A DNA stretch of 64,000 nucleotides, taken from contig CAYGIH010000001.1 in NCBI GenBank assembly GCA_964349945.1, positions 105,306 through 169,305 of the forward strand. Reading direction: 5' to 3'. Shown piece by piece: positions 1 through 18,480 of the stretch. The DNA comes from an uncultured Candidatus Saccharibacteria bacterium (lineage in GTDB: Bacteria > Patescibacteriota > Minisyncoccia > Phycocordibacterales > Zambryskibacteraceae). The translations under genes were made by a program, and so were the position numbers. The first letter of the stretch is position 1. Each line of letters opens with the position of its first letter. The notes beneath the pieces are model-generated. The model was given only the letters and a program-made list of their open reading frames with translations. It was not told the origin of the DNA and ran no database searches.

Positions 1-53
1 GCATTCCCCTGAAGAGGGAAGGGTCCCCAGTTCGAACCTGGGTCTTGGCACCA
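1..53 (+). tRNA. 5'-truncated tRNA, 3' portion only, with long variable arm and encoded CCA
   Basis: T-arm CCCAG-TTCGAAC-CTGGG is followed by acceptor 3' strand, a discriminator and CCA at 49-53. The 5' part lies outside the window. Confidence 0.4.
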
Positions 54-56
54 ACT

Positions 57-80
57 AAAAACCGCCTGAGGCGGTTTTTG
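57..80. terminator. bidirectional rho-independent terminator
   Basis: Hairpin ACCGCC-tga-GGCGGT flanked by an A-run and a T-run. Sits between the tRNA 3' end and the end of the Hsp20 gene. Confidence 0.6.
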
Positions 81-82
81 TA

Positions 83-532
83 TTATTGACCTTTAACTTT
101 CAGTCTAGTCTGACGATTTTTATCAAGTTTAGGTAAGTGGAGAATAAGGAGTCCATACTTCTCAACTGCTTCTGCTTCGTCTACATCTATTTCTTCTGGG
201 AGAACAACAGTACGAACAAACGAGCCCCAATATAACTCTCTATGATAGTAATCATCAGCAGAAACAGTGCGTTCTTCTTCTCGTTTACCACGAATAGTGA
301 CTGAATCTCTGGTGATGGCAACATCAAGATCTTCCGGCTTTACCCCGGCGACCATGGTCTTGATAACTATTTCTGATGGAGTTTGATAAACATCAACCGT
401 GAGCTGGCCTTCTTCCTCTTCGTCATAAAGACTGGCTTTGTTTTTAGGTGTTTCTTCAATATCCTCTGGGTTTTCATCATCCAATTTGACAGCACCAGTT
501 AATCTTTCAAAAAACGATCTTTTGTTCTGCAT
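83..532 (-). CDS. Hsp20/alpha-crystallin family small heat-shock protein
   Basis: 149 aa. Pattern resembles the alpha-crystallin domain (…TVDVYQT…IRGKREEE…YWGSFVRTVVLP…GLLILHLPK). Confidence 0.8.
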   Translation of the reverse strand: MQNKRSFFERLTGAVKLDDENPEDIEETPKNKASLYDEEEEGQLTVDVYQTPSEIVIKTMVAGVKPEDLDVAITRDSVTIRGKREEERTVSADDYYHRELYWGSFVRTVVLPEEIDVDEAEAVEKYGLLILHLPKLDKNRQTRLKVKGQ

Positions 533-585
533 ATTTTTATTGTTTGTAAGTATTATATCAGTGATTAATTGTGTATAAAAGTTTT

Positions 586-1302
586 TTAGTGGATATCAGG
601 TGGAGAGCTTAGAGGTGGTTTAATGTCTTTAACTTTTTCAAACAATAACAACAATGCTATGATGCTAACCCAAACTGCTCCAAAGGTAATAAAAGTACCC
701 AAATCATTCTGATTAACTATGAATAAATTAAATACTGTATGGAAGCTTACAGCAAGGATAAAAGCTAAAATTCCCCAAATAATTTTATCTAATAATGGTT
801 TGTAGAAGTGAAGAGAAATGGATAGACCGATAGTAGCCGAAGAAACCACATGCAGAAGTGAGGCACCTATAAACCTCATGTTACCCATGATAACTCCATT
901 CAAAATATCTTTTTGTATTAATGGATTAAGTATAAACAAGGCATTTTCTAGAGCCACAAATCCGAGAGCCACAGTAATCATATAAATCATTGGATCGATT
1001 GCCTCATCATCATCAGCTTTAGTTCGGATTGCGATAAAATATGCCGCCAGGAATTTAAAGGCTTCTTCAAGTATTGCCCAAAGAGTAAAGGCCGCAACAC
1101 CCATACCAGGGAAAAAGTCTGCGATTACTTTTTGAAATGGTATAACCAGTATCACTACAGCTGATCCAGCCAAGAAAGTTTTTAAAATTAAAAAGTTTGA
1201 CTCTGGGTTCTTTGCATCCTCTCTAAGCCAAAACAATAGCCACAAAATGGCTGGAAGAAAACCACCTACTAATGCCCAAAATATTGTTGGAAAATCAATC
1301 AT
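586..1302 (-). CDS. PrsW-family intramembrane metalloprotease (putative)
   Basis: Polytopic membrane protein with an EEAFK (EExxK) motif, plus FxxxH-like and H…N motifs (SFHTVFNLF) that are characteristic of PrsW/CPBP-type proteases. Confidence 0.55.
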   Translation of the reverse strand: MIDFPTIFWALVGGFLPAILWLLFWLREDAKNPESNFLILKTFLAGSAVVILVIPFQKVIADFFPGMGVAAFTLWAILEEAFKFLAAYFIAIRTKADDDEAIDPMIYMITVALGFVALENALFILNPLIQKDILNGVIMGNMRFIGASLLHVVSSATIGLSISLHFYKPLLDKIIWGILAFILAVSFHTVFNLFIVNQNDLGTFITFGAVWVSIIALLLLFEKVKDIKPPLSSPPDIH

Positions 1303-1308
1303 GAGTTT

Positions 1309-3420
1309 TTAAATTTTTTCTGGCCATGTTTCTACCATAAGAAATGTTTTCGTATTGTTGTTTGGTCTACTTTGCCATATTTCCTCTGTCACAAACGGCA
1401 TAAATGGATGTAGGAGTTTAAGTGAATTTTCTAATATAAAGTACAATGTTGCTCCATATTCTGGTTTACCTTTACTTTCTTCGATTATCTCATCAGCAAA
1501 GCGGTGCCAGATGTATGCATAAATTTTCTCTGCGGCTAAATAAAACCGATAATTTTCCATATCAAGAGTGATATCTTTAGCTAAAGTTTTAAATTCATCA
1601 ACTAAAGCTTTATTCAAATCACCTCTATTCTCTTGAGAGAAAACAAAGCGGGCAATGTTCCATATTTTATTAGAAAACTTCCCATAAGCTCTTACTTTTT
1701 GAATATCAAATTTACTGTCTGCTCCTGGTCCTATACCGACTATCATAGACATACGGAGTGCATCTGCGCCATACTCGTTAATTATTTCCAATGGGTCTAC
1801 ACCATTATCGAGTGATTTGCTGAATTTCTGTCCCTTCTGATCTCTAAGCATTCCGTGTAGATAAACAGTTTTGAAAGGTATCTCACCAATGAGATATTGA
1901 GACATAAGGATCATACGAGCCACCCAGAAGAAAAGGATTTCATATCCAGGGTTTATCACACTCGTTGGGTGAAATCTTTTTAAATCAGGAGCCGTTTCAT
2001 TGGGCCAACCAAGTGTAGAAAATGTCCAAAGCCCAGATGAAAACCAAGTATCCAAAGTATCTTCATCCTGAACCCAACCGGGTTCCTCGGGGGCTTCTAG
2101 ACCACAAAAAACTTTATTATCTTTGTACCAAACAGGAATTCTGTGCCCATACCAAATTTGCCTTGAGATACACCAATCACGTAAGTTTTCTATCCAATTA
2201 AAATAAACTTTTTCAAAATGTTCTGGGAGGATTTTAATTACTCCACTTCTTACTGGTTCGAGCATCAATTCTTTTAGAGATTTGTTTCCTCTGGAAGGAA
2301 TTTTTTTATTTACATCTATAAACCACTGGAGCATGATTTGTGGTTCAATAGTACCTCCGGATCTTTGGGCTGTGGCTACTCGATTTGTATAGTCTTCATC
2401 AACAGAGACGAGCAAACCCTTATCCTTTAACTTCTCTACAATCTTTTCTCTTGCTTCAGTAATTTTCATTCCTGCAAATTCTCCGGCGACAGGTAAGAGT
2501 CGTCCAAATTGATCAATGATTTGTTCTTTGTCTAATTTATATTTTTCAGCCAATGCGAAGTCTTCATGAGAGTGCCATGGAGTTATGGTCATCACTCCAG
2601 TGCCGAATTCCATATCTATAATCTCGTCTTTGATAATAGTTGCTTCGATTGGTCCATTAATCCACTCAAGATTTATTTTCTGCATATGTTGCCAATCTTT
2701 GTAGCGGGTATCATCTGGATGCATGACTACATATTTATCTCCAAATTTTGTTTCTGGTCTCGCGGTGCCTATTTCAAATGGTCCGTATTTAAATGTGTAA
2801 AACTTTCCCTTACGCTCTTCATAAACCAATTCATCATCTGAGACTACTGTTTGACCCTTGGTGTCCCAGTTAACAATTCTTGAACCTCTGTAGATAAGTC
2901 CGTCATCATACATTCTTTTAAAGGCGGTTTTTACTGCCACGTTGCGTTCATAGTCCAAAGTGAAAGCCTCACGTGACCAATCAAGAGAAGCTCCCATCTT
3001 TCGGAGTTGGTTTACAATTGTTTTTCTACTTTCTGATACGAAGTTGTCCACATGTTCTAGAAATTTCTCTCTGCCTATGTCTCTTTTCTTTACACCTTCT
3101 TTCTCAAGGAGTTTTGTAATCTTTGCATCAGTGGCTATGGCCGCGTGGTCAGTGCCTGGGAGCCACAAAGTTTGTTTGCCTTGCATCCTGTTGTAGCGAA
3201 TCAATGTATCCTGCATTGAATCCTCGAGGGTGTGGCCCAAATGAAGCACTCCTGTGGCATTCGGTGGGGGAAGAATAATAGAGAAAGTTTCTGCATCTGG
3301 TTTGGTTATCCCCAGTTCTATAAGCTTGTCTGGATTAAAAAGACCACTCTCCTCCCAAAGAGTGTAGATTTTAGGCTCTGTATCGCGAGGGTTATAAGGC
3401 GTAAGAAACTTGTCGTTCAT
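1309..3420 (-). CDS. valS: valyl-tRNA synthetase (short form lacking the C-terminal coiled coil)
   Basis: PPPNATGVLHLGH (HIGH motif), KFSKS (KMSKS motif), and a ValRS-like editing/connective region. 703 aa. Confidence 0.85.
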   Translation of the reverse strand: MNDKFLTPYNPRDTEPKIYTLWEESGLFNPDKLIELGITKPDAETFSIILPPPNATGVLHLGHTLEDSMQDTLIRYNRMQGKQTLWLPGTDHAAIATDAKITKLLEKEGVKKRDIGREKFLEHVDNFVSESRKTIVNQLRKMGASLDWSREAFTLDYERNVAVKTAFKRMYDDGLIYRGSRIVNWDTKGQTVVSDDELVYEERKGKFYTFKYGPFEIGTARPETKFGDKYVVMHPDDTRYKDWQHMQKINLEWINGPIEATIIKDEIIDMEFGTGVMTITPWHSHEDFALAEKYKLDKEQIIDQFGRLLPVAGEFAGMKITEAREKIVEKLKDKGLLVSVDEDYTNRVATAQRSGGTIEPQIMLQWFIDVNKKIPSRGNKSLKELMLEPVRSGVIKILPEHFEKVYFNWIENLRDWCISRQIWYGHRIPVWYKDNKVFCGLEAPEEPGWVQDEDTLDTWFSSGLWTFSTLGWPNETAPDLKRFHPTSVINPGYEILFFWVARMILMSQYLIGEIPFKTVYLHGMLRDQKGQKFSKSLDNGVDPLEIINEYGADALRMSMIVGIGPGADSKFDIQKVRAYGKFSNKIWNIARFVFSQENRGDLNKALVDEFKTLAKDITLDMENYRFYLAAEKIYAYIWHRFADEIIEESKGKPEYGATLYFILENSLKLLHPFMPFVTEEIWQSRPNNNTKTFLMVETWPEKI

Positions 3421-3695
3421 ACGTCTTTCATATTAGCACGTGTTCTCTATTAGAATATAGTAAATATAAAGGACAAAATTAAACACAAAAATTAGATAAT
3501 TTCAAATATCTTCAGTATTATTTTAAATGTGTTTACATATAGGTCTTTTATGAAAAGTTTATATTCCATATAAAGGACATTTGGTATATAAAGGACATAT
3601 CTATAAAATATGTTGAAAAATAAGGATATATTCAAAATTTGATTATTTCTCACCATATTGACAAGTTCATAAATAAACGTAATGTAAGAAAATCG

Positions 3696-6182
3696 ATGAA
3701 GAAATTAATTTCCAGCTTGAAATTTAAGAAAATACTCACTACATACCTCGTAGGTGTTTTGCTTGTGCTTAACTTTCCATTTCAGGCTTATGCTGCCTTA
3801 GTAACTGTGGATGTGCAGGCTAATGGCTTAAACGCCTTAACTTTGGCAACATCAACAGATTCATTTGATATTTTAGTGTTTTCTACAGATGCAGCCAGTT
3901 GTCAGATGACTTCACCAACAACCTCTGGGATCTCTCCTTCAGCTAGCATGCATGTAAACCCAGGTGATGCTTTTTACCCTAGTATTGGTGGAAGTGTCAC
4001 TTTTTCTGTGACTTGTGATGATGGAACTGGAGTGACTGCATCAGACAGTGTGGTTGTCTCTCTACCAGCAGTTTCTGTCCCTCCAACACCTCCAACCGTA
4101 AACATCACAGCTAATGGCTCAGATGGCCCGGTGACTCTCACTTCTCCAGCTACATACACCTACACATGGACTTCAACAAATGCCACCAGTTGTATACTCA
4201 CATCTCCAGTAACTTCTGGTATATCAACAGCCGGTACAAGCTCAGCAGTTGCTCCAGGTAGCGCTTTCTATCCTGCAGTTGGTGCTCCAGTAACTATTAC
4301 TATCGAATGTACTGATGGGACAACAACAGTTTCTGACTCGGTGGTGGTGAGCCTTAACTCTGGAGGAGGTGGTACATGTACACTTCCAACTATAAACAGT
4401 TCTCTTACTGCTTCAGGTACTGTGAATACTCCATTTTCATACACAACAACTACAACCAGTACTTCTACTCCCTCATATTCAATTGGAGCTTCAGTCCTTC
4501 CAACAGGCTTGTCCTTTAGCACTACTACAGGAGTAATTTCTGGTACACCAACCCAAAGTGGAACATTTAATATTGCTATCACTCCAACAAATCCTTGTGG
4601 TACAGACACACAAACTTTAGTTATAACCATAAATCCAGCCGGTGGAGGGGGAGGGGCGGTCACAGTAAGTTTAATCCCAAATCCAACAACCTTATTAGCA
4701 AATGCTACCAGCACTCTGACTTGGTCTTCAACCAATGCCACATCATGTTCAGCTCCTTGGACAGTTTCTACAGCCACATCAGGTAACCAAGTTGTCATTG
4801 TGGCAACTACAACAACTTATACAATTACCTGTACAAATGGAGTTACTCCTGTTTCTGCTAGTGCAATAGTAACTGTTATAACTCCAGGTTCCTGCACCCT
4901 CCCAATAGTTTCAAGTGCACTTACTGCTTCAGGTACTGTGAATACACCATTTTCATACACAACCACCACAACCAGTACTTCTACTCCCTCATATTCAATT
5001 GGAGCTTCAGTTCTTCCAACAGGCTTGTCCTTTAGCACTACTACAGGAGTAATTTCTGGTACACCAACCCAAAGTGGAACATTTAATATTGCTATCACTC
5101 CAACAAATCCTTGTGGTACAGACACACAAACTTTAGTTCTAACCATAAATCCAGCTGGTGGAGGCGGTGGAGGAGTTACCCCGCCCGTTTCAACGGGTGG
5201 TGGAGGTGGAGGAGGTGGTCGTAGACATCCAGTTGTTACCACAACTACTTCAACTGGCCTTGAATGTTTCTACCTCAGAGATTATATGAGGAGAGATTTC
5301 AATAATGACCCTATGGAGGTTATTAAACTTCAAGCTTTCCTTAAGAGTTTTGAAGGATATGATTATGTGACTATTAATGGCACATTTGATCAAGCCACTT
5401 TTGATGCTGTTTCAGCATTTCAAATGAAATACGAAGCTGATATTCTCACTCCATGGGGACATACTGCTCCAACAGGATATGTATACATTTTGACCTTGAA
5501 GAAAGTAAATGAAATCTACTGTCAGAGAATATACCCAGTATCTGAACAGCAACAGCTCGAAATCAACGCTCACAGAGCCCTACTTGAGCGCCTAAATGCT
5601 ACAGGAGGCACTATCCCAAGCACAGAAGTGGGTATAAATTCAACAACTACACCAACAATACCGATAATTGGTGAAGCTTCTCCACCTAAAGGACAAAATA
5701 TCTCAAATATAGCCACAGCCTTGTTTGCATTCCCGACCACAATGCAAGGGTTTCTGCAATGTCTGTATGAATGGTTGCTCATACTAATTGTCCTTTATTT
5801 CTTAGGAGATGTCCTTAAAGATGTCCTTTATAAAGATGAAAAGGAAAATGTCCTTAAGAAATTCATAGCCAAGTGGACAATTATCATAGTTGGATTATTG
5901 GCAGCAATAATTATCGCTTTCATACTCTATGAGTGGTGTTTAATCTTCCCACTCCTTGTAGCACTCATACTTTCAATTATCTGGGTTTCGATTTATCCCA
6001 AACATGAGTCTATTAATACCGACATCAAATCTTGGTACATAGTCCTTAGAGCACGAGGAAAGTCTATGTGGATAAAATTTAAGAATAAGAATAATCAATT
6101 ACCTCCGGTGGTTAGTACTATTTCTATTGATAAAACTCTCATGAAGGTTGATGAAAAGATAGAGAATAAAAAGACTAATTAA
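3696..6182 (+). CDS. large cell-surface protein with a signal peptide, tandem putative Ig (He_PIG-like) repeats, Gly/Thr-rich linkers, a peptidoglycan-binding-like domain and a C-terminal membrane anchor
   Basis: Likely start is the MKKLIS… signal peptide; the ORF track starts at 3639. Duplicated segments match the putative Ig domain signature (…LPTGLSFSTTTGVISGTPTQSGTFNIAIT…). IKLQAFLKSFEGYDYVTINGTFDQATFDAVSAFQ resembles a PG_binding_1 domain. Hydrophobic C-terminal segments. Confidence 0.7.
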   Translation: MKKLISSLKFKKILTTYLVGVLLVLNFPFQAYAALVTVDVQANGLNALTLATSTDSFDILVFSTDAASCQMTSPTTSGISPSASMHVNPGDAFYPSIGGSVTFSVTCDDGTGVTASDSVVVSLPAVSVPPTPPTVNITANGSDGPVTLTSPATYTYTWTSTNATSCILTSPVTSGISTAGTSSAVAPGSAFYPAVGAPVTITIECTDGTTTVSDSVVVSLNSGGGGTCTLPTINSSLTASGTVNTPFSYTTTTTSTSTPSYSIGASVLPTGLSFSTTTGVISGTPTQSGTFNIAITPTNPCGTDTQTLVITINPAGGGGGAVTVSLIPNPTTLLANATSTLTWSSTNATSCSAPWTVSTATSGNQVVIVATTTTYTITCTNGVTPVSASAIVTVITPGSCTLPIVSSALTASGTVNTPFSYTTTTTSTSTPSYSIGASVLPTGLSFSTTTGVISGTPTQSGTFNIAITPTNPCGTDTQTLVLTINPAGGGGGGVTPPVSTGGGGGGGGRRHPVVTTTTSTGLECFYLRDYMRRDFNNDPMEVIKLQAFLKSFEGYDYVTINGTFDQATFDAVSAFQMKYEADILTPWGHTAPTGYVYILTLKKVNEIYCQRIYPVSEQQQLEINAHRALLERLNATGGTIPSTEVGINSTTTPTIPIIGEASPPKGQNISNIATALFAFPTTMQGFLQCLYEWLLILIVLYFLGDVLKDVLYKDEKENVLKKFIAKWTIIIVGLLAAIIIAFILYEWCLIFPLLVALILSIIWVSIYPKHESINTDIKSWYIVLRARGKSMWIKFKNKNNQLPPVVSTISIDKTLMKVDEKIENKKTN
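4404..4650 (+). repeat. intragenic direct repeat, copy 1 (about 250 bp, >95% identical to copy 2)
   Basis: The nucleotide stretch cttactgcttcaggtactgtgaata…ccataaatccagc recurs 516 bp downstream. Confidence 0.85.
4920..5166 (+). repeat. intragenic direct repeat, copy 2
   Basis: Near-identical to 4404-4650. Accounts for the spurious antisense ORFs at 4268-4798 and 4817-5242. Confidence 0.85.
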
Positions 6183-7227
6183 GAGAGAGGTTTCCTCGAG
6201 CTTTTATAGAATGTGTTTCAATAGCTAAATTTGGATTTTTGAGCAAGTTTATATAGGCAGTTATTCCTATCATTACCGCATTGTCTGTAGTCAGAGAGTT
6301 TTCAGGGAGAAGTAGGTTCAAACCAGTATTTTTGACTTTTATCTTCTCTAACTCACTTCTCAAGTATTTGTTTGCAGACACACCACCGGCCACAATAAGG
6401 GTGTTTACTCCATACTGTAGGAGAGCTTTTTCTGTTTTGGTTATAAGTACTTCTATGGCTGAATCCTCGAAGGCTCTCGCCATCTCCTCTTTAACTTCCT
6501 CGGTAATAATTTGATCTTTTAATCTATATAAAACAGATGTTTTTAGTCCAGAAAATGAGAAGTCAAAATCATCGGAGTTAATCATGGGTCGAGGAAGTTC
6601 AAAGCTCGGTGTTTTAGCTTCCTTTCTGTGCTTTTCTGCCAGTTTGGATATTTTGGGGCCACCTGGATATTCAAGACCGAGTAATCTAGCCACCTTATCA
6701 AAAGCTTCACCAACAGCATCATCTCTGGTTTGGCCAATCATTTTGTACTCTCCGTAATTCTTTATATATATTAGTTCTGTGTGTCCTCCGGAGATTAAAA
6801 GTGCGACTGCAGGGAGAATTAGTTTTTCTTTTATCCCAAAAAGAGTTGAATAAATATGACCTTCCATATGATTTATAGGCAAAACTTTGATGCCCCATTT
6901 CTCACCAATTTCTTGTGCGAAAACTATGCCTGCCCAAAGTGCAGGTTCAAGTCCTGGTCCGGCGGTCACGGCGATATAGTCTATGTTTGGTTTATCCAAA
7001 CTTTCCTGAGCCTCTTTGAGTACCTTTTCTACTAAAATTGGCAAATTCTTCTCATGTTCTCGTTTGGCAAGCATGGGGACAACTCCACCGAACTCTTTAT
7101 GCATATCTATCTGGGAAACAATGGCATTCGAAAGGATTTTAAATTGTGGGGCATCAATTTCACCACTACATTCGAGTAGAGCGACTGCAGTCTCATCACA
7201 ACTGGTTTCTATGGCTAAGATTTTCAT
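6175..7227 (-). CDS. tsaD: tRNA N6-adenosine threonylcarbamoyltransferase TsaD (Kae1/YgjD family)
   Basis: MKILAIETSCDETAVAL…, HMEGHI motif, about 350 aa. Confidence 0.9.
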   Translation of the reverse strand: MKILAIETSCDETAVALLECSGEIDAPQFKILSNAIVSQIDMHKEFGGVVPMLAKREHEKNLPILVEKVLKEAQESLDKPNIDYIAVTAGPGLEPALWAGIVFAQEIGEKWGIKVLPINHMEGHIYSTLFGIKEKLILPAVALLISGGHTELIYIKNYGEYKMIGQTRDDAVGEAFDKVARLLGLEYPGGPKISKLAEKHRKEAKTPSFELPRPMINSDDFDFSFSGLKTSVLYRLKDQIITEEVKEEMARAFEDSAIEVLITKTEKALLQYGVNTLIVAGGVSANKYLRSELEKIKVKNTGLNLLLPENSLTTDNAVMIGITAYINLLKNPNLAIETHSIKARGNLSLN

Positions 7228-7265
7228 TAAAACAGTAATTATTAGTATATAGGACTATAAACTAA

Positions 7266-9608
7266 GTGTATAATAAGGCAATGATTAAGGATTATGTACG
7301 GGCCGCCAATTATTTGAGCGCCATTCAGATTTATTTGTGGGACAATTTTTTATTAGAAAAACCTCTTAGTAGTGATGATATAAAGTCGAGGCTCCTGGGT
7401 CACTGGGGGACTTGTCCGGGGATTAACTTTGTTTATGCGCATTTGAATGACGTCATCATCAGGCACAAACAAGATATGATGTTTATATTGGGCCCAGGTC
7501 ACGGCTTCCCAGCACTTCAAGCCAATTTGTTTTTAGAAAAAACACTCGGGCAGTTTTATCCAGAAGCAACGCAAGATGAGAGTGGAATAAAATATTTGGC
7601 CAAAAATTTTAGCTGGCCGTACGGATTCCCAAGTCACTCAAATCCTGGTGCACCCGGAGTAATCCTTGAAGGTGGAGAACTTGGTTATTCGCTCTCTACT
7701 GCGTGGGGAACAGTTCTAGATAATCCTAAACTAATTACAGTTTGTCTTGTGGGTGATGGTGAAGCGGAGACAGGCGCACTCGCCACTTCGTGGCACCTTA
7801 GCAAATTTGTGGATCCAAAGACAAACGGAGCGGTTCTCCCAATTCTCCACTTGAATGGTTACAAGATCTCTGGACCAACAGTTTTTGGTCGAATGAATAA
7901 TGAAGAATTAAAGGAACTTTTCCATGGATACGGATACGAACCAATTATAGTCGATGGTGGAGATGATGAACTTTATGAAAGGATGCCTGTGGCACTTGAA
8001 ACTTGTTTAGAAAAAATAAAAAAACTTCAAACAGAAGGTAAGGCAGAAGAAGATTCTTATCCTAGGTTCCCTATGATTATTCTTCGAACCAAAAAAGGTT
8101 GGACAGGAGTGAAGGAATCCAGAGGCAGAAAGATTGAGGATAATGCCTTGGCCCATCAAGTGGTTTGTTCTCATGTGAAGAGTGACCCTGAAGAACTCAA
8201 ATCTGTTGAAGCTTGGCTTCGTTCATATAATTTCTCAGAATTGTTTGGTAAAGAAAATGGTTTTACTAAAAGCATCATAGATCTCATCCCACCACCGGAG
8301 CTTGCGATGGGGAACAACAAACACACTTTTGGTTTGAAATACACTGGTCAACCTCTCGACCTTCCAGATGCAGAAAGTTTAATGGAGGATGCGAGTGTCC
8401 CCGGGACTATGGGTTCAAGCAGTATGATCCGTATGTCTCTATATCTAAAGGAAGTTTTCAACAGAAACAAAGAGAGTAAAAATTTTCGCCTCATGTCTCC
8501 GGATGAAACTTATTCAAACAAACTCCAGGCGGTTTTCCCTGAGACCTCTCGAGCCTTTGCTGGACCGATAGAACCTTGGGACATCGACCTCTCACCAGAT
8601 GGACGAGTGATGGAAATGCTTTCTGAGCACTCGCTCCAAGGTTTAGCCCAAGGTTATATATTGACCGGACGACACGCAGTCTTCGCTTCTTATGAAGCCT
8701 TCGTCCAAGTGGTGTCTAGTATGGCAGATCAATATGCGAAGTTCCTCCACGTCGCCAGAGAGATACCTTGGAGAGGAGATATTCCTTCCCTCAATTATAT
8801 TTTGACCTCTAGTGGTTGGAGACAAGAGCACAATGGTTTCTCTCACCAGAATCCAGGCTTCATTGATGCAATGCTCCAAAAGCAAGGATGTTTTGTGAAG
8901 GTTTTCTTCCCACCAGACGGAAACACCGCACTTGCAGTACTTGAACAATGTCTAAAGTCTAAAAATGAAATCAACTTAATTGTGGCTGGTAAGACTGTTG
9001 AACCAAGGTGGCTCGATGAGAAGTTAGTGAAGCAGGAACTCCAGTCGGGGTTAATGACTTGGGACTTCGCCAGTGATGAAAATCCTGATTTGATTTTCTC
9101 TGCTGCTGGAGAGTATCTGACCAAAGAAGCTCTCGCTGCCATGATGATAATTCGAGAGAAATTACCCGAAGTTAAACTACGCTATGTGAACATTTTGGAG
9201 ATCTCAGCTATAGGTATAGGCAACTCAATGTGTAAGGTGCCCATGCAGTCATTCAATGATTATTATATGGAGGACAAGCCTGTTATCTTTAATTTCCACG
9301 GTTATCCAGAGACACTCAAGCAGGTTTTGTTTGATCACCAAGATGGTAAGAACAGATTTTATGTTCATGGTTATACAGAAAATGGTTCGACCACCACACC
9401 ATTTGATCTTCACCTTAGGAATAAAACCAGTCGCTATGATTTGGCCATTGAAGCCTTTAGAATCTTGGCCGAAAGGAATCTTATCTCTACTGCAGAAGCA
9501 GAACAGTTGATCGAAGAATTCACTCGCAAGATATCTGCTCATCATGAATATATTGTGAAGAATGGAGTGGACCCAGAAGAAATTAATAATTGGAAGTGGC
9601 AAAGATAA
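7266..9608 (+). CDS. xfp: xylulose-5-phosphate/fructose-6-phosphate phosphoketolase
   Basis: 780 aa. Signature motifs GHWGTCPG…GPGHG…EGGELGYSLS, with a TPP-binding fold. Confidence 0.85.
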   Translation: MYNKAMIKDYVRAANYLSAIQIYLWDNFLLEKPLSSDDIKSRLLGHWGTCPGINFVYAHLNDVIIRHKQDMMFILGPGHGFPALQANLFLEKTLGQFYPEATQDESGIKYLAKNFSWPYGFPSHSNPGAPGVILEGGELGYSLSTAWGTVLDNPKLITVCLVGDGEAETGALATSWHLSKFVDPKTNGAVLPILHLNGYKISGPTVFGRMNNEELKELFHGYGYEPIIVDGGDDELYERMPVALETCLEKIKKLQTEGKAEEDSYPRFPMIILRTKKGWTGVKESRGRKIEDNALAHQVVCSHVKSDPEELKSVEAWLRSYNFSELFGKENGFTKSIIDLIPPPELAMGNNKHTFGLKYTGQPLDLPDAESLMEDASVPGTMGSSSMIRMSLYLKEVFNRNKESKNFRLMSPDETYSNKLQAVFPETSRAFAGPIEPWDIDLSPDGRVMEMLSEHSLQGLAQGYILTGRHAVFASYEAFVQVVSSMADQYAKFLHVAREIPWRGDIPSLNYILTSSGWRQEHNGFSHQNPGFIDAMLQKQGCFVKVFFPPDGNTALAVLEQCLKSKNEINLIVAGKTVEPRWLDEKLVKQELQSGLMTWDFASDENPDLIFSAAGEYLTKEALAAMMIIREKLPEVKLRYVNILEISAIGIGNSMCKVPMQSFNDYYMEDKPVIFNFHGYPETLKQVLFDHQDGKNRFYVHGYTENGSTTTPFDLHLRNKTSRYDLAIEAFRILAERNLISTAEAEQLIEEFTRKISAHHEYIVKNGVDPEEINNWKWQR

Positions 9609-9612
9609 ATCT

Positions 9613-10596
9613 ATGAAAATTTTAACTGTCAATGTAGGAAGTGAATCAAAGAAGTACACATTGTTTGTAGATGACAAAGAGATTTGGAATGTTCACATAG
9701 AGGAGCGTGATGGACAAATCGGAGAGGATAAATTAAATGAACAGTTTGATTGTATTGCCTTTCGAGTAGTGGCTCCGGGGACATATTTTAGGGAACACAG
9801 ACTAATAGGTGAGGAATTCTTTAGACAACTTACGGTGGCCAGGGAAAAGGCCCCCCTCCACATAGACAGAACTTTTATTGAGATACAGTTTTTCAAGAGT
9901 CGATTCCCTAATACTAAGATGGTGGCTATTTCTGATTCAGCCTTTCACTCGACCCTTCCTGACTATGCACGACTTTATGCCTTACCACTCGATGATGCTA
10001 AGAAGTTTGATATAGAACATTTTGGATACCACGGCATCTCACTCTCATCTATTGTTGAAAAATTGAAAGCAGAAAATAATTTGAAGGACAGAATTATTGT
10101 TTGTCACCTCGGCGGAGGTTCAAGCATTACAGCGATAAAGGAAGGTAAAAGTATTGATACCTCTATGGGCTTCACTCCACTTTCTGGTTTAACTATGGCG
10201 ACGAGGGTAGGGGAAATTGATGCTGGGGCACTTGTTTATCTCTCGGAAGTGAAAAATCTACACGGAGAAAGATTTGAAGAATATCTTGGTAATCAATGTG
10301 GCTTCCTAGGCTTCGCTGGGACTCCAAGTATGAAGCAACTACTTGATGAAGAAAAGACAAATGAAAGGGCAGAGCAAGTTATAAGGATGTTTGTCTATCA
10401 AGTGCAGAAATATATTGGGGCTTATGCTGTGGCACTTGGTGGTTTGGATTTATTGGTTTTCTCCGGAGGCATCGGTGAACCATCTGAGCCTATCCGCTCA
10501 AAAATTCTTGCTGGTATTGGTGCTCTAAAGGAAAATGTTTTAGTTGTGCCTACGGACGAAGCAGGGGAGATGAATAGAATTGCAAAGGGGATATAA
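9613..10596 (+). CDS. ackA: acetate kinase (short form)
   Basis: MKILTVNVGSESKKY… resembles the ILVLNCGSSS N-terminus. HLGGGSSITAIKEGKSIDTSMGFTPLSGLTMATRVGEIDAG is the acetate/propionate kinase signature. Immediately downstream of xfp. Confidence 0.8.
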   Translation: MKILTVNVGSESKKYTLFVDDKEIWNVHIEERDGQIGEDKLNEQFDCIAFRVVAPGTYFREHRLIGEEFFRQLTVAREKAPLHIDRTFIEIQFFKSRFPNTKMVAISDSAFHSTLPDYARLYALPLDDAKKFDIEHFGYHGISLSSIVEKLKAENNLKDRIIVCHLGGGSSITAIKEGKSIDTSMGFTPLSGLTMATRVGEIDAGALVYLSEVKNLHGERFEEYLGNQCGFLGFAGTPSMKQLLDEEKTNERAEQVIRMFVYQVQKYIGAYAVALGGLDLLVFSGGIGEPSEPIRSKILAGIGALKENVLVVPTDEAGEMNRIAKGI

Positions 10597-10629
10597 ACAT
10601 TCCAACATTCTTGAGAATGTAGGAATGTT
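10596..10629. other. long near-perfect hairpin (15-bp arms) at the ackA stop
   Basis: aacattccaacattc-ttga-gaatgtaggaatgtt. Confidence 0.5.
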
Positions 10630-10640
10630 TGATATGAAAA

Positions 10641-10667
10641 AAGACCCATATTATACTCGTGGGTCTT
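10641..10667 (-). terminator. rho-independent terminator for the minus-strand gene ending at 10685
   Basis: aagaccca…tgggtctt hairpin, with a T-run on the minus strand. Confidence 0.5.
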
Positions 10668-10684
10668 CTACGAGGGTGATTTGT

Positions 10685-10927
10685 TCAGATGTGAGCGGGG
10701 CGGAGCTCGCATTCACGCACACCGAAGCCAAATTTCCTTTCGAGGAATTCGATCACATATTCTGGTTCTCCTTGTGACCATTCCCCGGGTGATTTGAGCC
10801 GAGTGATTCGGCAACGTTTGTTGTCATTGATTCTGACACCAGACGTGCCTCGGTTTATGAATATGCAAACCTGACCAACATGATATCTGTGCCGAACTGG
10901 TTCATCAGCTGTCATGCTGATCTCCAT
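10685..10927 (-). CDS. hypothetical protein (elevated-GC gene)
   Basis: 80-aa ORF. Overlaps the upstream gene by 23 nt. GC is clearly above background. Confidence 0.4.
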   Translation of the reverse strand: MEISMTADEPVRHRYHVGQVCIFINRGTSGVRINDNKRCRITRLKSPGEWSQGEPEYVIEFLERKFGFGVRECELRPAHI

Positions 10928-11276
10928 CGTAAGGCGCGATTTTCAGCTCACGCTTGAGTCGCCTCTCTCGCTCTTCGAGGTGGTAGAGCTGGACTCGATC
11001 GCTGTCAATTGCAGCAGAACGCTTGGCTCGACGGGCATTCCAGGCATCTGTGCTGTAGTCTTCGGCTCTGTCCATACTTCGGACATCAGCGGTCATCTGG
11101 ATGATGCTCGTACTAAACTCGAGAATTCGCTTCTGAACATCTGCGAGTTCGGTCTGCTTCTTTTCAACCTTGCGCTTCTTGTACTCTCGCACCGCGTCCT
11201 TGATGACACCAGAGCTGAGAAGTAGAATTGCAAGGACAAACAGCAGAACAAAGATGTCGATCACGTAGCGCATCAT
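10905..11276 (-). CDS. hypothetical membrane-anchored coiled-coil protein (elevated-GC gene)
   Basis: N-terminal transmembrane segment (VIDIFVLLFVLAILLL) followed by a charged coiled-coil region. 123 aa. Confidence 0.45.
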   Translation of the reverse strand: MMRYVIDIFVLLFVLAILLLSSGVIKDAVREYKKRKVEKKQTELADVQKRILEFSTSIIQMTADVRSMDRAEDYSTDAWNARRAKRSAAIDSDRVQLYHLEERERRLKRELKIAPYDGDQHDS

Positions 11277-11424
11277 GTTGCCTCTGGCCGAAGCCGTAGG
11301 GGAATGAACGAAAAGAACTTTGTTGTAATTTTAGCATAAATTTCTTCAAAGTCAAGTTTGATTTATATATAAAAAAGTCCATGCTTAGAGGAAGTAAATT
11401 CGCTTATAAATAACAATAAAAACA

Positions 11425-11688
11425 ATGATAGACCCAACCAAACTAGACTTGAATCAATTACCAAAGAAATTCTGCGATGGAGCCATTGGGGCGTATGGGA
11501 AGGACCTTTTCTCTTTCGTCCTCACTTCTGGGAACAACCTCGACTCCTTCGCCACCACTCCGCAAGTGATGAAAAGCATAGCCGTTTGGATGAATGGCCA
11601 AATCCAAGATTATGAAAAGAAATTTGGAGTCATAGACATGACCCCTCCTTCAATCCAAAGCCCGATTCAAATTGCGGATTTGAAATAA
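11425..11688 (+). CDS. DUF3467-like small protein
   Basis: …PQVMKSIAVWMNGQIQDYEKKFGVI… resembles the conserved C-terminal block of DUF3467 proteins. Confidence 0.5.
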   Translation: MIDPTKLDLNQLPKKFCDGAIGAYGKDLFSFVLTSGNNLDSFATTPQVMKSIAVWMNGQIQDYEKKFGVIDMTPPSIQSPIQIADLK

Positions 11689-11726
11689 ACTGATGCAAGG
11701 ACAGTCCTTGCTTAATGTTCATGTTG

Positions 11727-11762
11727 ACAACATTGTTTTAAGTGCTACTATAAAAATGTGAA
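11727..11762 (+). promoter_or_regulatory. sigma70-like promoter (TTGACA … TATAAA)
   Basis: ttgaca-N17/19-(c)tataaa. Lies upstream of the leader ORF and the MFS gene. Confidence 0.4.
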
Positions 11763-11778
11763 AGCAATAATAAACATT

Positions 11779-11889
11779 ATGAATAAGCGTCTTATGAACC
11801 TAGAAGCCTTCTGGGGTTATAAGCCTGTATCTGTCACTCATGACAATACACTTACGCTCAGTCGTGATGTTTCTCATTTGCAAAGTTAA
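11779..11889 (+). other. putative 36-codon leader peptide ORF (MNKRLMNLEAFWGYKPVSVTHDNTLTLSRDVSHLQS)
   Basis: ATG…TAA ORF between the promoter and the attenuator hairpins. Not in the ORF track because it is under 60 aa. Confidence 0.35.
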
Positions 11890-11918
11890 AATCTCCTATT
11901 AATTAGCACCTAGAAATC

Positions 11919-11963
11919 TCCCGACTGGACGAAAGTCGGGATTTTTCGTCCCAATTTGTCCAG
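11919..11963 (+). promoter_or_regulatory. attenuator-like alternative hairpins (terminator/antiterminator) in the 5' leader of the MFS transporter gene
   Basis: cccgac…gtcggg followed by aTTTTTcg. Overlapping alternative pairings ggacgaaa/tttcgtcc and ctggac/gtccag. RBS aggag lies just upstream of the ATG at 12005. Confidence 0.45.
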
Positions 11964-12004
11964 TAATTGTTCTTTTACTAGCTAACCACACACAGGAGCG
12001 AACA

Positions 12005-13195
12005 ATGTTAAAGAAATTGATTCGGCAGTACTATCTCTTGTCGTTCCTGTTCTCAGCAGGCGGCATGGCGATCATCAGTGCGACGTACGTCACTTTCCTC
12101 ATTCACAACGGTTTGAATTTGTTCGAAGTGAATTTGGTCAATGCGATTTTCTTTTTCACCCTCTTTATCTGCGAGATTCCAACCGGAGCCTTCGCAGATA
12201 TTTTCGGGAGGAAGCAATCGTTCGTGATGGCTTGTGCCATCACATCTCTCTCGATGTTTGTGTACGGTTTGTCCCATACATTTTGGGGCTTTGCTCTTGC
12301 AGAAAGTTTGGCCGCAGTTGGCAACACTTTCAGGAGCGGTGCCTTTCAAGCATGGTTCGTGGACAGCCTGAAGCATCATGGTTATGAAGGTTCTTATACC
12401 AAGCTTTTTGGGAGGGAGAGTCTTTATAATCGAGTCGGTGGCGGTCTCGGTTCTATCACTGGAGCTTATATCGCCGTTGTGAATCCCGCGTATCCATGGT
12501 TTTTGGGCGGGAGCATTATGTTCGTGATGACACTCATTGCCCTCAAGGTGATGAAGGAAGAATATTTTGTCCGACAGAGTTTCTCTTGGAAGAATGGTTT
12601 GAACAAGATGCTCGAGGTGGCGAAGACCAGTGTTCACTATGGAGCCACCCACAAGCCAGTGAGGTTTATCCTCATCGTCACCTTCATCGAGATCTATGCT
12701 GTGCAGGCCATCAACATGTACTGGCAACCGTTCTTTAGGCAGAGTGGAGTGAATGAACAACATCTTGGATTTCTTTTCTCTGGGATGATGCTCATGGTTG
12801 CACTCGGTGCCTACCTCGTCTCTCGGATGAACACAGAGGGCAAGGAACGAGTGATGATACTCTGGTCCATGATGTTCGTCGGGGTGATGATTTGGATAGC
12901 TTCTTTGTCACCTTGGCTCTCTGGAGCTATCCTTGCTTTCCTTCTCCACGAAGGAGGTAGGGGATTTTGGAATCCGATGAGCGACAGCTATCTCCAACAG
13001 AGGATTCCCTCCGAGGAGCGGGCAACCATCTCTTCATTCTGTTCGACGGCTCCGCACATCGGTGGGGCAGTCGGGCTCCTCGTGAGCGGTGGTATTGCCC
13101 AGATGTTTGGGATAACTGCTTCGTGGATGGTGGGTGGTGCGGTGCTCGTAGTCGGAGCATTTCTCGTTCGTAAAAACGGTTATGATTCGACCTAG
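12005..13195 (+). CDS. MFS transporter, drug:H+ antiporter-like (elevated-GC gene)
   Basis: 12-TM protein of 396 aa with MFS motif A (GAFADIFGRKQSF). GC about 50% against a background of about 35%. Confidence 0.75.
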   Translation: MLKKLIRQYYLLSFLFSAGGMAIISATYVTFLIHNGLNLFEVNLVNAIFFFTLFICEIPTGAFADIFGRKQSFVMACAITSLSMFVYGLSHTFWGFALAESLAAVGNTFRSGAFQAWFVDSLKHHGYEGSYTKLFGRESLYNRVGGGLGSITGAYIAVVNPAYPWFLGGSIMFVMTLIALKVMKEEYFVRQSFSWKNGLNKMLEVAKTSVHYGATHKPVRFILIVTFIEIYAVQAINMYWQPFFRQSGVNEQHLGFLFSGMMLMVALGAYLVSRMNTEGKERVMILWSMMFVGVMIWIASLSPWLSGAILAFLLHEGGRGFWNPMSDSYLQQRIPSEERATISSFCSTAPHIGGAVGLLVSGGIAQMFGITASWMVGGAVLVVGAFLVRKNGYDST

Positions 13196-13201
13196 AAACT
13201 C

Positions 13202-13233
13202 AAACGGTTTGTCCAACGACAAACCGTTTTTTA
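13202..13233 (+). terminator. rho-independent terminator
   Basis: aaacggtttgtc-caac-gacaaaccgttt followed by tttt. Confidence 0.7.
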
Positions 13234-13343
13234 TTACAATTTTATGGCTTAACAGAGGGATATTTATGCTTGACTTTTATAATTAAATATGTTTATATAC
13301 TCGTAGAGTAATTGCACGCCAACCACCATCAGAGGGCTCGAAA

Positions 13344-13634
13344 ATGGGAGAAAAGAAACGGCTACTGCTCCTCGTCGAAGAACTTCCTTCCCAGATGAGA
13401 TCGGTTATCAAGGCATTTCATCCGACCGCGGGAGGGTTCATCGTCGAGGAAGCCAGTTCCGAACATGATGTTGAACAGGTGGGTGGGCAAACCAAACAAG
13501 ACGGGATGCTCATCACTAGCTATCAGCAACGCAAGACTGGTGAACTGTTTTTCCGTGTTGTTGACACGCGGGATAACTGGAGCACCAAGTGGTACAGGGC
13601 GCTCGCCCTCACACAACAAACTCAAATCGCCTAG
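13344..13634 (+). CDS. hypothetical protein (elevated-GC gene)
   Basis: 96-aa ORF followed directly by a terminator. The overlapping antisense ORF 13362-13625 is considered spurious. Confidence 0.4.
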   Translation: MGEKKRLLLLVEELPSQMRSVIKAFHPTAGGFIVEEASSEHDVEQVGGQTKQDGMLITSYQQRKTGELFFRVVDTRDNWSTKWYRALALTQQTQIA

Positions 13635-13654
13635 ATAATTAGGCGATTTTTTTT
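13627..13654. terminator. bidirectional terminator
   Basis: tcgcct-agataatt-aggcga followed by T8. Confidence 0.6.
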
Positions 13655-14711
13655 ATGCAGTTTTGGGGATAGGGAATTCTTGGGTTTCTTGTGTAGGAGC
13701 GATTTTTTGAAATTCTTTTATCATATCTATTTTGCTCAAATAATTTCTGTATACATCCACATAATTTCCATTTTGTATTTCATAGCTAGCATAATTTCTA
13801 GATTGCTTACCTTTGTATTCATATGCAGGTGTAGTGAGACTGTGTGATTTGAAATAAGAATCATGAATACCCAAAGAGTTTCCAGCATCTATTGGTTCAA
13901 CACATGCTACCCAGCTTCTTCCCATCATGTCTGTTCCAAAGGTATATAAAACTGTTTTATCATTTGAATAAAAACTTGAAAGTATTATGTTTCCATATAA
14001 AAAGTTTTCTTGAGTCCAAGTATCAAAAGGATGTTCAAAATCTGGTGCGTGGCTATCTGAAACCTTGACATCTTCTGGTGCCAATCTGGGTTCAGTTTCT
14101 TTTGTTTCGTTAATTACTAGTTCTATTGGTTTACTTGGAATTCTTCTTCTGTAAGTTGTGTTTTCTAATCTTTCTTCGACTAAATTTTTTGATGTTGAAT
14201 AAAATATTTTCATAGAGTCTTCTTGGGTTTCAACAGGGTCAGTATTTTGAGCAAGATAAGATAAAACTCTTTGGATTGAATGTGTGACAGAGACATTTTG
14301 TTCATCATGTCCCTTATCAAATAATTGCAATGCGGGTATGTTTATATAACTGGGCAAGTATTTAAAAACTCCATGAGAATTACTCAAATAATAACTACGA
14401 GCAGTGTAAGTATTGTTTCCTTCTTTTGTATAACCTATAAATGCAATCCTGTTGTCATCAATAATAAATGGACGAGAAAAAGCGAAAATCCTCTCATAAC
14501 CTTCAAACATTATCGCATAAGGCTCCACCCCATTTCTTTTATACATTTCTGGATCTTTAGGATCTTTTTCTCCGGCATGAATTTGGGTTTTGGACAAAAT
14601 CATTTCAGCCATTTCATCTGAAAGAAGCTCAAGCTTTACTTTGGTGCCGGTAGTGCTCTCAAATCTTAAATCTGTTTTTGAACCTTCGTTATTTTCTGGA
14701 AGTTTCTCCAT
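13653..14711 (-). CDS. hypothetical protein (352 aa, soluble, no recognisable motifs)
   Basis: Long ORF with AT-rich codon usage, no transmembrane segment or signal peptide. Adjacent to a tRNA cluster. Confidence 0.55.
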   Translation of the reverse strand: MEKLPENNEGSKTDLRFESTTGTKVKLELLSDEMAEMILSKTQIHAGEKDPKDPEMYKRNGVEPYAIMFEGYERIFAFSRPFIIDDNRIAFIGYTKEGNNTYTARSYYLSNSHGVFKYLPSYINIPALQLFDKGHDEQNVSVTHSIQRVLSYLAQNTDPVETQEDSMKIFYSTSKNLVEERLENTTYRRRIPSKPIELVINETKETEPRLAPEDVKVSDSHAPDFEHPFDTWTQENFLYGNIILSSFYSNDKTVLYTFGTDMMGRSWVACVEPIDAGNSLGIHDSYFKSHSLTTPAYEYKGKQSRNYASYEIQNGNYVDVYRNYLSKIDMIKEFQKIAPTQETQEFPIPKTA

Positions 14712-14718
14712 AAATTTG

Positions 14719-14790
14719 TGACCCTACAGAGAGTCGAACTCTGCTTCCATCCTTGAAAAGGATGTGTCCTAACCGATAGACGATAGGGCC
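14719..14790 (-). tRNA. tRNA-Glu (anticodon TTC)
   Basis: The reverse complement folds as a cloverleaf. Anticodon loop TTTTCAA, T-loop GTTCGACTC. No CCA encoded. Confidence 0.8.
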
Positions 14791-14853
14791 TTAATAACCG
14801 AAATATAGTAACATTTTTGGTCAAAAAGGCAATAAATGCTAATGTAGGAGCAC

Positions 14854-14940
14854 GGAAGAGTGGCTGAGTGGTTGAAGGCACCGGTTTCGAAAACCGGCAT
14901 GGGGGAAACCCCATCGAGAGTTCAAATCTCTCCTCTTCCG
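14854..14940 (+). tRNA. tRNA-Ser (anticodon CGA)
   Basis: Acceptor GGAAGAG/CTCTTCC, anticodon arm CCGGT-TTCGAAA-ACCGG, long variable arm, T-loop TTCAAAT. Confidence 0.85.
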
Positions 14941-14973
14941 CAGATTTGGATTTTGGTATAGAGTAGCCATATT

Positions 14974-15046
14974 GCGCGGTTAGCTCAGTTGGTAGAGCGC
15001 GTCATTGACGTTGACGATGTCAGAGGTTCGAGTCCTCTACCGCGCA
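14974..15046 (+). tRNA. tRNA-Val (anticodon GAC)
   Basis: GCGCGGT…TAGCTCAGTTGGTAGAGC…CGTCA-TTGACGT-TGACG…GGTTCGAGTCC…ACCGCGC-A. Confidence 0.85.
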
Positions 15047-15149
15047 CAGTAAATAGTTTTACTGTGCTTGAGGACTCGAAAAGGTTCTCCTATATTTTTG
15101 AAAAACTCTGTTTTGAAAAAATAGGAAACCTGTACTGAAGCAGTAGGCT

Positions 15150-15173
15150 TCGAGTCCTCTACCGCGCACTCGT
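15150..15173 (+). repeat. direct repeat of the tRNA-Val 3' end (att-like remnant)
   Basis: TTCGAGTCCTCTACCGCGCAC recurs about 105 bp downstream of the tRNA-Val 3' end. An inverted partial copy (GAGGACTCGAA) lies at about 15091. Confidence 0.6.
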
Positions 15174-15186
15174 ATATAATAGGTAG

Positions 15187-16131: not shown

Positions 16132-16169
16132 ACCAAGAAGTTCCACCACGTACATTGTGAGGTAACACC

Positions 16170-16934: not shown

Positions 16935-16940
16935 CAACAC

Positions 16941-16966
16941 AGAGCGACCTCGGTCGCTCTTTTTCT
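16941..16966. terminator. bidirectional terminator
   Basis: agagcgac-ctcg-gtcgctct followed by ttttt. Confidence 0.65.
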
Positions 16967-17893: not shown

Positions 17894-17961
17894 AGTTCGT
17901 CTAGAATAACAGAAAAATTTTTAAATGAAAAATCCGCTCCTATGTACTAGGAGCGGATTAT

Positions 17962-18468: not shown

Positions 18469-18480
18469 GCTTGTTCTTAA

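Follow-up and report, generated by a model that had tools for sequence, protein, structure and literature searches.

Near-identical modules in a predicted wall-binding surface protein of a Patescibacteria genome probably reflect intragenic gene conversion at a locus of module turnover

How two non-adjacent stretches of one gene come to be almost identical in their DNA, and what this says about the protein that they encode, is the question raised by a surface-protein gene of an uncultured Candidatus Saccharibacteria bacterium. The gene lies on the + strand of the 64,000-nt stretch analysed here (contig CAYGIH010000001.1 of assembly GCA_964349945.1, positions 105,306–169,305 of the forward strand; hereafter the window, from whose first letter all positions are counted). 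A first-pass annotation of these letters had noted two near-identical internal repeats and suggested recent duplication or ongoing gene conversion in a candidate host-attachment protein. The follow-up reported here indicates that the gene probably encodes a real membrane-anchored, wall-binding surface protein, in which intragenic gene conversion from repeat copy 1 into repeat copy 2 took place after the split from the nearest other species, at a locus that reshuffles its modules. The features that carry this reading are listed below (aa, amino acids; AF2, AlphaFold2 model; Ig, immunoglobulin).

3696–6182, + strand: surface-protein gene, 828 aa plus stop, start at ATG 3696
4377–4634, + strand: He_PIG module 1, aa 228–313; Pfam He_PIG at 47.5 bits on its own, over profile positions 2–96 of 96
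4404–4650, + strand: repeat copy 1, inside He_PIG module 1; likely donor of the conversion tract
4656–4886, + strand: module A3, Ig-like, 77 aa, between the two He_PIG copies; AF2 aa 323–395
4893–5150, + strand: He_PIG module 2, aa 400–485; its first 27 nt (4893–4919) are not homogenised
4920–5166, + strand: repeat copy 2, likely recipient in the conversion; its end falls in the Gly linker, at the point where the two contexts cease to be homologous

The two repeat copies are identical at 240 of 247 positions (97.2%), in agreement with the earlier claim of more than 95%, and are offset by 516 nt, or 172 codons, in frame, with six of the seven mismatches at codon position 3. A repeat search widened the pair to 4371–4663 and 4887–5179 at 91% identity. 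The edges of the core are nevertheless sharp: 12 of 27 positions differ in 4377–4403 as against 7 of 247 in the core (Fisher p 2e-9), and 18 of 27 differ after 4650. Since the remaining module pairs within the gene share 32–53% DNA identity, the identity of this pair is far beyond chance. The longest perfectly identical stretch between the copies is 126 nt in the window and 64 nt in a second assembly of the locus, described below. Each copy lies inside a He_PIG module; the copies are not neighbours, being separated by the 77-aa A3 module of a different type, and Tandem Repeats Finder found no long-period array in the gene.

The direction and age of the event were assessed against the nearest other species, referred to here as the sister species and represented by a Minisyncoccia metagenome-assembled genome (MAG; locus L001), whose ortholog (P0002) has 758 aa. 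The sister locus is syntenic, with the gene between valS and tsaD-xfp-ackA and flanking DNA about 82% identical. A second sister-species MAG (L002) is identical to L001 over 13.3 kb, and the pair thus carries no information on polymorphism. In the sister species no A3 separates the two He_PIG modules, which directly adjoin one another and have a mutual DNA identity of 72.1%, at a number of synonymous substitutions per site (dS) of 1.25. Copy 1 of the window is 79.8% identical to sister copy 1 (dS 0.92), a normal orthologous distance. Copy 2 is 75.6% identical to sister copy 1 as against 69.4% to its positional counterpart, sister copy 2, and the core dS between the two window copies is 0.092. 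Clustering at the protein level with further relatives yields the same grouping of He_PIG modules. The first nine codons of copy 2 are unconverted and encode CTLPIVSS, like the A3-adjacent He_PIG modules of distant relatives (CTLPIISS, CTLPVISS). Intragenic conversion is therefore favoured because copy 2 is nearer to sister copy 1, the sister modules are 72% identical and identity jumps at 4404. These data support the earlier proposal that a recent event at the DNA level lies behind the near-identity; it was non-reciprocal, and the sister comparison favours gene conversion over fresh duplication.

On this reading, the ancestor shared with the sister species would already have possessed two diverged He_PIG modules. 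Once the species had split, module 1 would have donated a tract of at least 247 nt that replaced the core of module 2, sparing its first 27 nt and stopping at the end of homology in the Gly linker, and about 0.09 synonymous substitutions per site would have arisen between the copies since. The ancestral order may have been A1-A2-H1-A3-H2 (A1 and A2 being the N-terminal modules and H1 and H2 the He_PIG modules); this order is taken from distant relatives with A3 directly before He_PIG, because the sister species lacks A3. Concerted evolution of the repeats of bacterial surface proteins by intragenic gene conversion is a general phenomenon, and the present case resembles it in that paralogous modules are more alike than orthologous ones and in that the tract is sharply bounded. 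It differs from concerted evolution of a whole array in being a single event between two non-adjacent modules. The repeat pair is thus a textbook instance of intragenic gene conversion, unsurprising to a specialist and part of ordinary surface-protein evolution.

Whether the repeat pair exists in the organism can be judged from a second assembly. The same protein (P0001) is present on a 381-kb NCBI contig, and a member of its cluster (P0121) lies on an independent 70-kb ENA MEGAHIT contig (k141_1107212) with the same 847-aa open reading frame (ORF), a length discussed with the start codon below. The ENA contig is 99.981% identical to window positions 1–16182 over 16,182 nt, and it holds both repeat copies together with copy-specific differences. 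Assembly artefact, named by the first-pass annotation as the finding that would overturn its proposal, is accordingly very unlikely, as the independent assembly has the same architecture.

Three other origins of the repeat pair were weighed against conversion. Short-read assemblers can be confused by repeats of about 250 nt, and the differences between the two available assemblies are confined to the repeats; a segment collapsed or falsely duplicated in assembly is nonetheless highly improbable, given that two independent assemblies agree on the in-frame architecture with 7–10 copy-specific differences, that each copy sits in a unique and different context, and that the reading frame and domain boundaries are intact, both modules folding confidently in AF2. 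The more serious rival is a fresh duplication, in which a He_PIG module was recently copied downstream of A3 and the sister species gained its second He_PIG independently. The 97% identity of the copies would fit such a history, as would the variation of He_PIG number from 0 to 3 across the family, which indicates that independent gains do occur. It is made improbable by the presence of two He_PIG modules at collinear positions in both species, and by the first 27 nt of copy 2, which code for He_PIG yet are 56% identical to copy 1, as fits a pre-existing module with a replaced core; duplication would also have required two exact in-frame joins within a domain already present, and hence more steps. 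Diversity-generating retroelements (DGRs) are reportedly common in Patescibacteria and act on surface proteins, and the repeats could in principle be the template and variable copies of such an element. That explanation has next to no likelihood: the mismatches (T>A, A>C, T>C, C>T, A>C, C>T, G>C) show no adenine specificity, six of them are synonymous, one protein contains both copies as coding modules, and the gene is bordered by valS and tsaD, with no reverse transcriptase beside it. The mismatch spectrum and the lack of an adjoining reverse transcriptase rule out a DGR pair.

With conversion as the favoured origin of the pair, the two strain-level assemblies also bear on whether exchange continues. 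They differ at three positions in 16,182 nt, all within the repeats (chance 2.8e-5): two in copy 1 (4538 and 4553) and one in copy 2 (5074). At both of the copy-1 positions the ENA copy 1 shares the state of sister copy 1, while the window copy 1 has the state of copy 2. These states match a short conversion patch from copy 2 into copy 1, and are suggestive only. A perfect stretch of 126 nt (64 nt in the other assembly) should suffice for homologous recombination, and the repeat pair would now be a substrate for RecA-type recombination, in which a crossover between the copies would delete or duplicate exactly 172 codons (He_PIG plus A3) in frame. Deletion would leave a product of 656 aa with A1-A2-HePIG plus anchor, an architecture that exists in a natural relative (P0013, 659 aa). 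Window positions 14992–30985, a range that does not cover the gene, are matched at 100% identity by a Logan contig (L004).

The remainder of the protein was delineated by Pfam search, hydropathy and AF2 modelling, and comprises the features listed below (pLDDT, predicted local distance difference test score; TM, transmembrane).

3696–3794, + strand: signal peptide, aa 1–33; basic N-terminus, hydrophobic core and a predicted AYA|A cleavage-type site; AF2 helix 2–25
3795–4067, + strand: module A1, Ig-like beta-sandwich; AF2 strands aa 37–122, pLDDT about 87–92; Cys at aa 69 and 107
4086–4358, + strand: module A2, of A1 type, 53% DNA identity to A1; TWTSTNATSC motif; AF2 aa 134–221
5151–5264, + strand: Gly/Thr-rich flexible linker with G6 and G8 runs; pLDDT below 50 for aa 489–522
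5196–5218, + strand: short GGTGGAGGA tandem repeat within the Gly/Thr-rich linker
5265–5600, + strand: PG_binding_1-type helical domain, aa 524–635; Pfam match aa 541–579
5742–5990, + strand: three TM helices, aa 683–711, 719–743 and 747–765; from hydropathy, AF2 helices and strong family-wide conservation
5991–6179, + strand: predicted basic cytoplasmic tail, 12 K+R; amphipathic helix aa 767–798

Both Pfam families that had been put forward for a domain search scored above their gathering cut-offs: He_PIG (PF05345) matched twice (E 1.5e-18, 67.5 bits, cut-off 24) and PG_binding_1 (PF01471) once, at aa 541–579 (28.2 bits, cut-off 23). A precomputed PG_binding_1 match is also found in 13 of the 15 top listed family members, and the domain has the three-helix fold of peptidoglycan-binding domains; binding of peptidoglycan by aa 524–635 is predicted on these grounds. 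The A modules belong to no Pfam family, with a sub-threshold Big_9 match only. AF2 models had mean pLDDT values of 76.9 and 78.6. That of the window protein (76.9) shows a signal-peptide helix, five beta-sandwiches, a linker, a helical domain, a second linker and three hydrophobic helices, with the He_PIG beta-sandwiches formed by strands at aa 238–313 and 410–485 (pLDDT about 74–94). In Foldseek searches the model matched tandem Ig arrays at E about 1e-13, with adhesion molecules and an RTX adhesin extender among the structures matched; the TM part yielded only generic helical matches. Each extracellular module contains exactly two Cys, which suggests disulfides within the modules, and the K/R-rich segments, namely the loop after TM1 (5 residues) and the C-terminal tail (12 residues), would fit an N-out, C-in topology. 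Searches of the anchor region against NCBIfam and by sequence against the PDB returned nothing significant, and no LPXTG-like or sortase motif occurs in the last 60 aa.

Taken together, Pfam, hydropathy and AF2 support the signal peptide, Ig-like modules, Gly/Thr/Ser-rich linkers, peptidoglycan-binding module and membrane anchor that had been proposed from the letters, with two adjustments of detail: the Gly runs are of 4, 5, 6 and 8 residues, where runs of 5 to 8 had been given, and the C-terminal membrane anchor comprises not one hydrophobic helix but three, with a basic tail after them. In this architecture, the protein would be exported by Sec and, after cleavage, would carry five Ig-like modules outside the cell in the order A1-A2-HePIG1-A3-HePIG2, a topology predicted from sequence and model. 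The Gly-rich linker would join the Ig array to a membrane-proximal PG_binding_1 domain, followed by the three-helix anchor and a basic cytoplasmic tail. The protein would thereby be fixed to both membrane and wall, with its Ig array pointing outward.

A number of observations weigh against the overall reading of a converted, module-shuffling surface protein. A3 is absent from the sister ortholog. The PG_binding_1 match is partial, covering profile positions 4–41 of 57, and the Pfam search of the protein, including its N-terminal A1 and A2 modules, found no adhesive tip domain. The three repeat-confined differences could equally be errors of consensus or graph simplification in one assembly, or co-existing alleles. 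As regards the earlier suggestion that the repeats permit variation in repeat number, such variation is seen between species, and none is seen between the two strain-level assemblies, which are only two in number and both of 847 aa, or among database matches: the protein search gave no match between 88% and 100% identity, and hence no near-identical length variant, and a 41-mer taken from the repeat core had no match in JGI metagenome contigs. Variation in repeat number is thus plausible: mechanistically sound but unobserved at the strain level.

To place the gene in a wider context, its family was scanned using one genome per GTDB species, which gave 176 relatives; 79 loci were fetched, and gene-order counts were made on 83 loci. 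With one exception the fetched loci come from Patescibacteria-type MAGs (Parcubacteria, Zambryskibacteria, Paceibacteria, Minisyncoccia). The exception (L060, DATGWK010000014.1) is labelled 'Candidatus Nanoarchaeia archaeon' and has the bacterial family's anchor module with tsaD after it; mis-binning of a Patescibacteria contig is the probable explanation. A convergent tsaD lies downstream in 81 of the 83 loci, and a divergent valS lies upstream in 69, the rest being cut by contig ends. The C-terminal module, made up of the peptidoglycan-binding domain and three TM helices, is conserved and includes many invariant residues. At E <= 1e-30 it matched 280 cluster representatives, a number that rose to 1968 at E <= 1e-10; in every case the match lay at the C-terminus, in proteins about 250–1900 aa long. 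The ectodomain is unconserved, with ORFs of about 460–1700 aa that hold 0–3 He_PIG and 0–7 A-type modules. The gene thus belongs to the core genes of a large clade and keeps its position there, and the protein family is widespread but undescribed.

The same scan showed that the window is not alone in its internal repeats. Seven other species (L013, L033, L047, L049, L068, L073, L075) have internal repeats of their own, of 179–585 nt and 94.9–100% identity, built from different module types (Cna-B-like, A-type, DUF5011-like, and an A plus He_PIG pair); some of those that are 100% identical could be assembly collapses. In a further comparison, two relatives (P0009 and P0014) that are 91.6% identical in the anchor region differ in module content, P0009 having a duplicated A module (84 of 95 aa identical) at the site where P0014 has a different inserted domain. 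Turnover and homogenisation of modules are a property of the locus, and the repeat pair of the window is one instance. Across the family, the locus would gain, lose and homogenise Ig modules around a constant anchor. An exposed, fast-evolving surface protein would be expected to show such a pattern, be it an adhesin, a host-contact protein or one exposed to phage, and we infer a protein of that kind here.

A role in adhesion or host attachment, as the first-pass annotation had proposed for an episymbiont, would be in keeping with this pattern and goes no further than inference, the episymbiotic lifestyle being an assumption from phylum membership. The lineage itself is placed in the Patescibacteria because its closest records are Minisyncoccia/Parcubacteria MAGs. 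In PMC12206443, cultivated Patescibacteria are all described as episymbionts, and their recognition and binding of partners as largely unknown; in PMC12625730, some Parcubacteria are reported or proposed as free-living. These reports of free-living members are among the points that would favour a different role, in which the protein is mainly a component of envelope architecture (a membrane-to-wall tether, spacer or surface coat) and the Ig array varies through exposure to phages or predators, not through host binding. Also in its favour are the position of the gene, conserved across the whole clade, the peptidoglycan-binding domain and TM helices as the most conserved parts, the 280 cluster representatives that match the anchor module at the stricter threshold, and the failure of Pfam to detect an adhesive domain. 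Set against it, Thr-rich tandem Ig arrays of variable module number are typical of the stalks of fibrillar adhesins (PMC9210967), and the structural matches include the adhesion molecules and RTX adhesin extender noted above. We regard a mainly architectural role as a serious alternative, if of lesser likelihood; it and an adhesin role are not mutually exclusive.

Two described groups of surface proteins invite comparison with this membrane- and wall-anchored protein. In the periscope proteins (SasG, Rib and Sgo_0707; Whelan et al. 2021, PMC8201768), high DNA identity between repeats has been proposed to permit intragenic recombination and changes in length. The window protein is like them in being a surface protein of globular, mostly Ig-like repeats. 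Periscope proteins, however, have long arrays of adjacent, highly identical repeats, where here two identical segments lie 516 nt apart with a different module between; their length variation between strains is documented, where here two strain-level assemblies are of equal length; their anchor is LPXTG, in place of PG_binding_1 and three TM helices; and they have an N-terminal functional domain, where none distinct was found in the window protein. With the 'stalk-only' fibrillar adhesins (Monzon et al. 2022, PMC9210967) it shares rod-like repeats of stalk type, a Thr-rich composition, a surface anchor and a repeat number that varies between homologs. It is unlike them in its modest length of 828 aa, in having no known adhesive domain and in an anchor type outside the class definition: a cell-surface anchor is present (signal peptide, peptidoglycan-binding domain and three TM helices), which is not of the classical sortase or type 1 secretion system type. 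The protein may work like the periscope proteins and fibrillar adhesins, and we do not file it as a member because an array of adjacent identical repeats and a distinct distal binding domain are both missing. Its PG_binding_1 domain is likewise set apart from those of the SleB N-terminal domain (6tci), AP3 endolysin (5nm7), CtpB (4c2c) and the Zn DD-peptidase (1lbu), which target an enzyme to the wall; in the window protein there is no catalytic domain, and the domain is placed between the Ig array and the membrane anchor.

The less expected part of the locus is a short motif upstream of the gene with an echo in its codons, which could lead to a regulator. The features concerned are as follows.

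3465–3597 (starts 3465, 3569 and 3587), + strand: TATAAAGGACA in three direct copies, all preceding the core promoter; candidate gene-specific operator or activator sites
3658–3685, + strand: candidate sigma-70-type core promoter, TTGACA at 3658–3663, 16-nt spacer, TAATGT at 3680–3685; a consensus match only
5685–5697, + strand: sense copy of the motif in the coding sequence, encoding P-K-G-Q-N
5789–5855, − strand: four antisense AAGGACA copies in the coding sequence, encoding Val-Leu of conserved TM1 and loop peptides (IVLY, DVLK, DVLYK, NVLKK)

The AAGGACA core of the three TATAAAGGACA copies starts 227, 123 and 105 nt before the ATG, and the sister species has the same copy number and spacing (L001 9770–9901). 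Family-wide, the 9-mer TAAAGGACA occurs at 3.45 per kb in the 350 nt upstream of the gene, as against 0.11 per kb in the rest of the intergenic DNA at these loci. Its arrangement is stereotyped in dozens of family loci, with a distal copy near −227 and a pair 17–18 nt apart near −120 and −105. All eight exact TAAAGGACA copies of the 64-kb window fall between 3467 and 5828. Because the upstream copies precede a conserved promoter that ends about 7–13 nt before the ATG, they look like DNA sites for a dedicated regulator and constitute a candidate gene-specific operator.

Within the coding sequence, Val-Leu in the last 160 codons is written GTC-CTT in 41% of cases family-wide (88 of 215), as against 3.0% (29 of 979) in neighbouring genes (p 5e-48), and the Lys-Gly-Gln tripeptides just upstream of the Val-Leu sites are AAA-GGA-CAA in 17 of 17. 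This bias implies that synonymous sites are constrained by something beside the protein: going by codon usage, the complement of the motif appears to be kept in the coding sequence by synonymous choice. The internal copies are confined to a closer subfamily, and their number is uncorrelated with that of the upstream copies. A duplex between the 5' leader and the coding sequence was calculated at −40.5 kcal/mol, as against −23.5 +/- 4.0 for shuffled leaders; such long-range pairing is energetically possible but unlikely, since the core promoter lies 10 nt from the ATG and upstream and internal copy numbers are uncorrelated. A replication origin was considered for the motif cluster and rejected, as the local negative GC skew tracks minus-strand genes and the Thr-rich gene itself and is positive again upstream. 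An Rfam family was likewise rejected: only tRNAs reach the gathering score in the 64-kb window, and the intergenic region between valS and the gene gives no credible match.

These findings allow a broader and distinctly tentative proposal, rather unlikely on present evidence, that the gene between valS and tsaD is the main variable surface determinant of this Patescibacteria clade (Parcubacteria, Paceibacteria and Minisyncoccia), under its own cis-element TAAAGGACA. If so, the constant anchor and continually rebuilt ectodomain would set the specificity for a partner or host, or susceptibility to phage; the two to three upstream copies of TAAAGGACA before a near-leaderless promoter would control the gene; and the coding-sequence complement in one subclade would imply an undescribed dedicated regulator or a mechanism of RNA or DNA pairing. 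Its position allows the gene to be located in most genomes of a large clade; it combines a constant wall and membrane anchor with a rapidly reshuffled Ig array, and is therefore a concrete candidate for comparison with host range, phage pressure or habitat.

The position of the promoter also bears on where translation begins. The gene is a single long ORF on the + strand with its stop at 6182. The first-pass annotation had given a product of 847 aa; from the start at 3696 the product has 828 aa, and the 847-aa database version requires an in-frame TTG at 3639. The candidate core promoter TTGACA-N16-TAATGT lies between 3639 and 3696 and ends 10 nt before the ATG, a position that argues against TTG 3639 as the start codon. 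The ortholog of the sister species (P0002) begins at the Met equivalent to ATG 3696. Across the family, TTGAC[ATG]-N16-17-TAnnnT is found at the equivalent place in 35 of 52 loci, ending about 7–13 nt before the ATG. Judged by the position of this candidate promoter, the mRNA may be near-leaderless, without a clear Shine-Dalgarno sequence.

In the window, the gene is flanked by valS upstream and tsaD downstream, and its 3' end overlaps that of the convergent tsaD by 8 nt (6175–6182). Two antisense ORFs, at 4268–4798 (− strand, 176 aa) and 4817–5242 (− strand, 141 aa), lie wholly within the Thr/Ser/Gly-rich part of the gene, and were assumed to be a by-product of composition and not genes. Directly downstream of tsaD are a phosphoketolase gene (xfp) and an acetate kinase gene (7266–10596), a placement retained in the sister species and in the independent assembly; xfp is present in 5 of the 83 checked loci (L001, L002, L003, L010 and L012). 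Downstream of ackA, small ORFs and a zeta-toxin/AAA_33-like gene take up about 2.7 kb in the sister species (L001 17200–20000), as against about 0.7 kb at the same place in the window (10600–11400); the two genomes, otherwise collinear, differ here by a small variable island. Elsewhere in the window, 11 tRNA genes are arranged in four groups, at 14719–15046, 35853–36424, 43662–44103 and 45534–45614.

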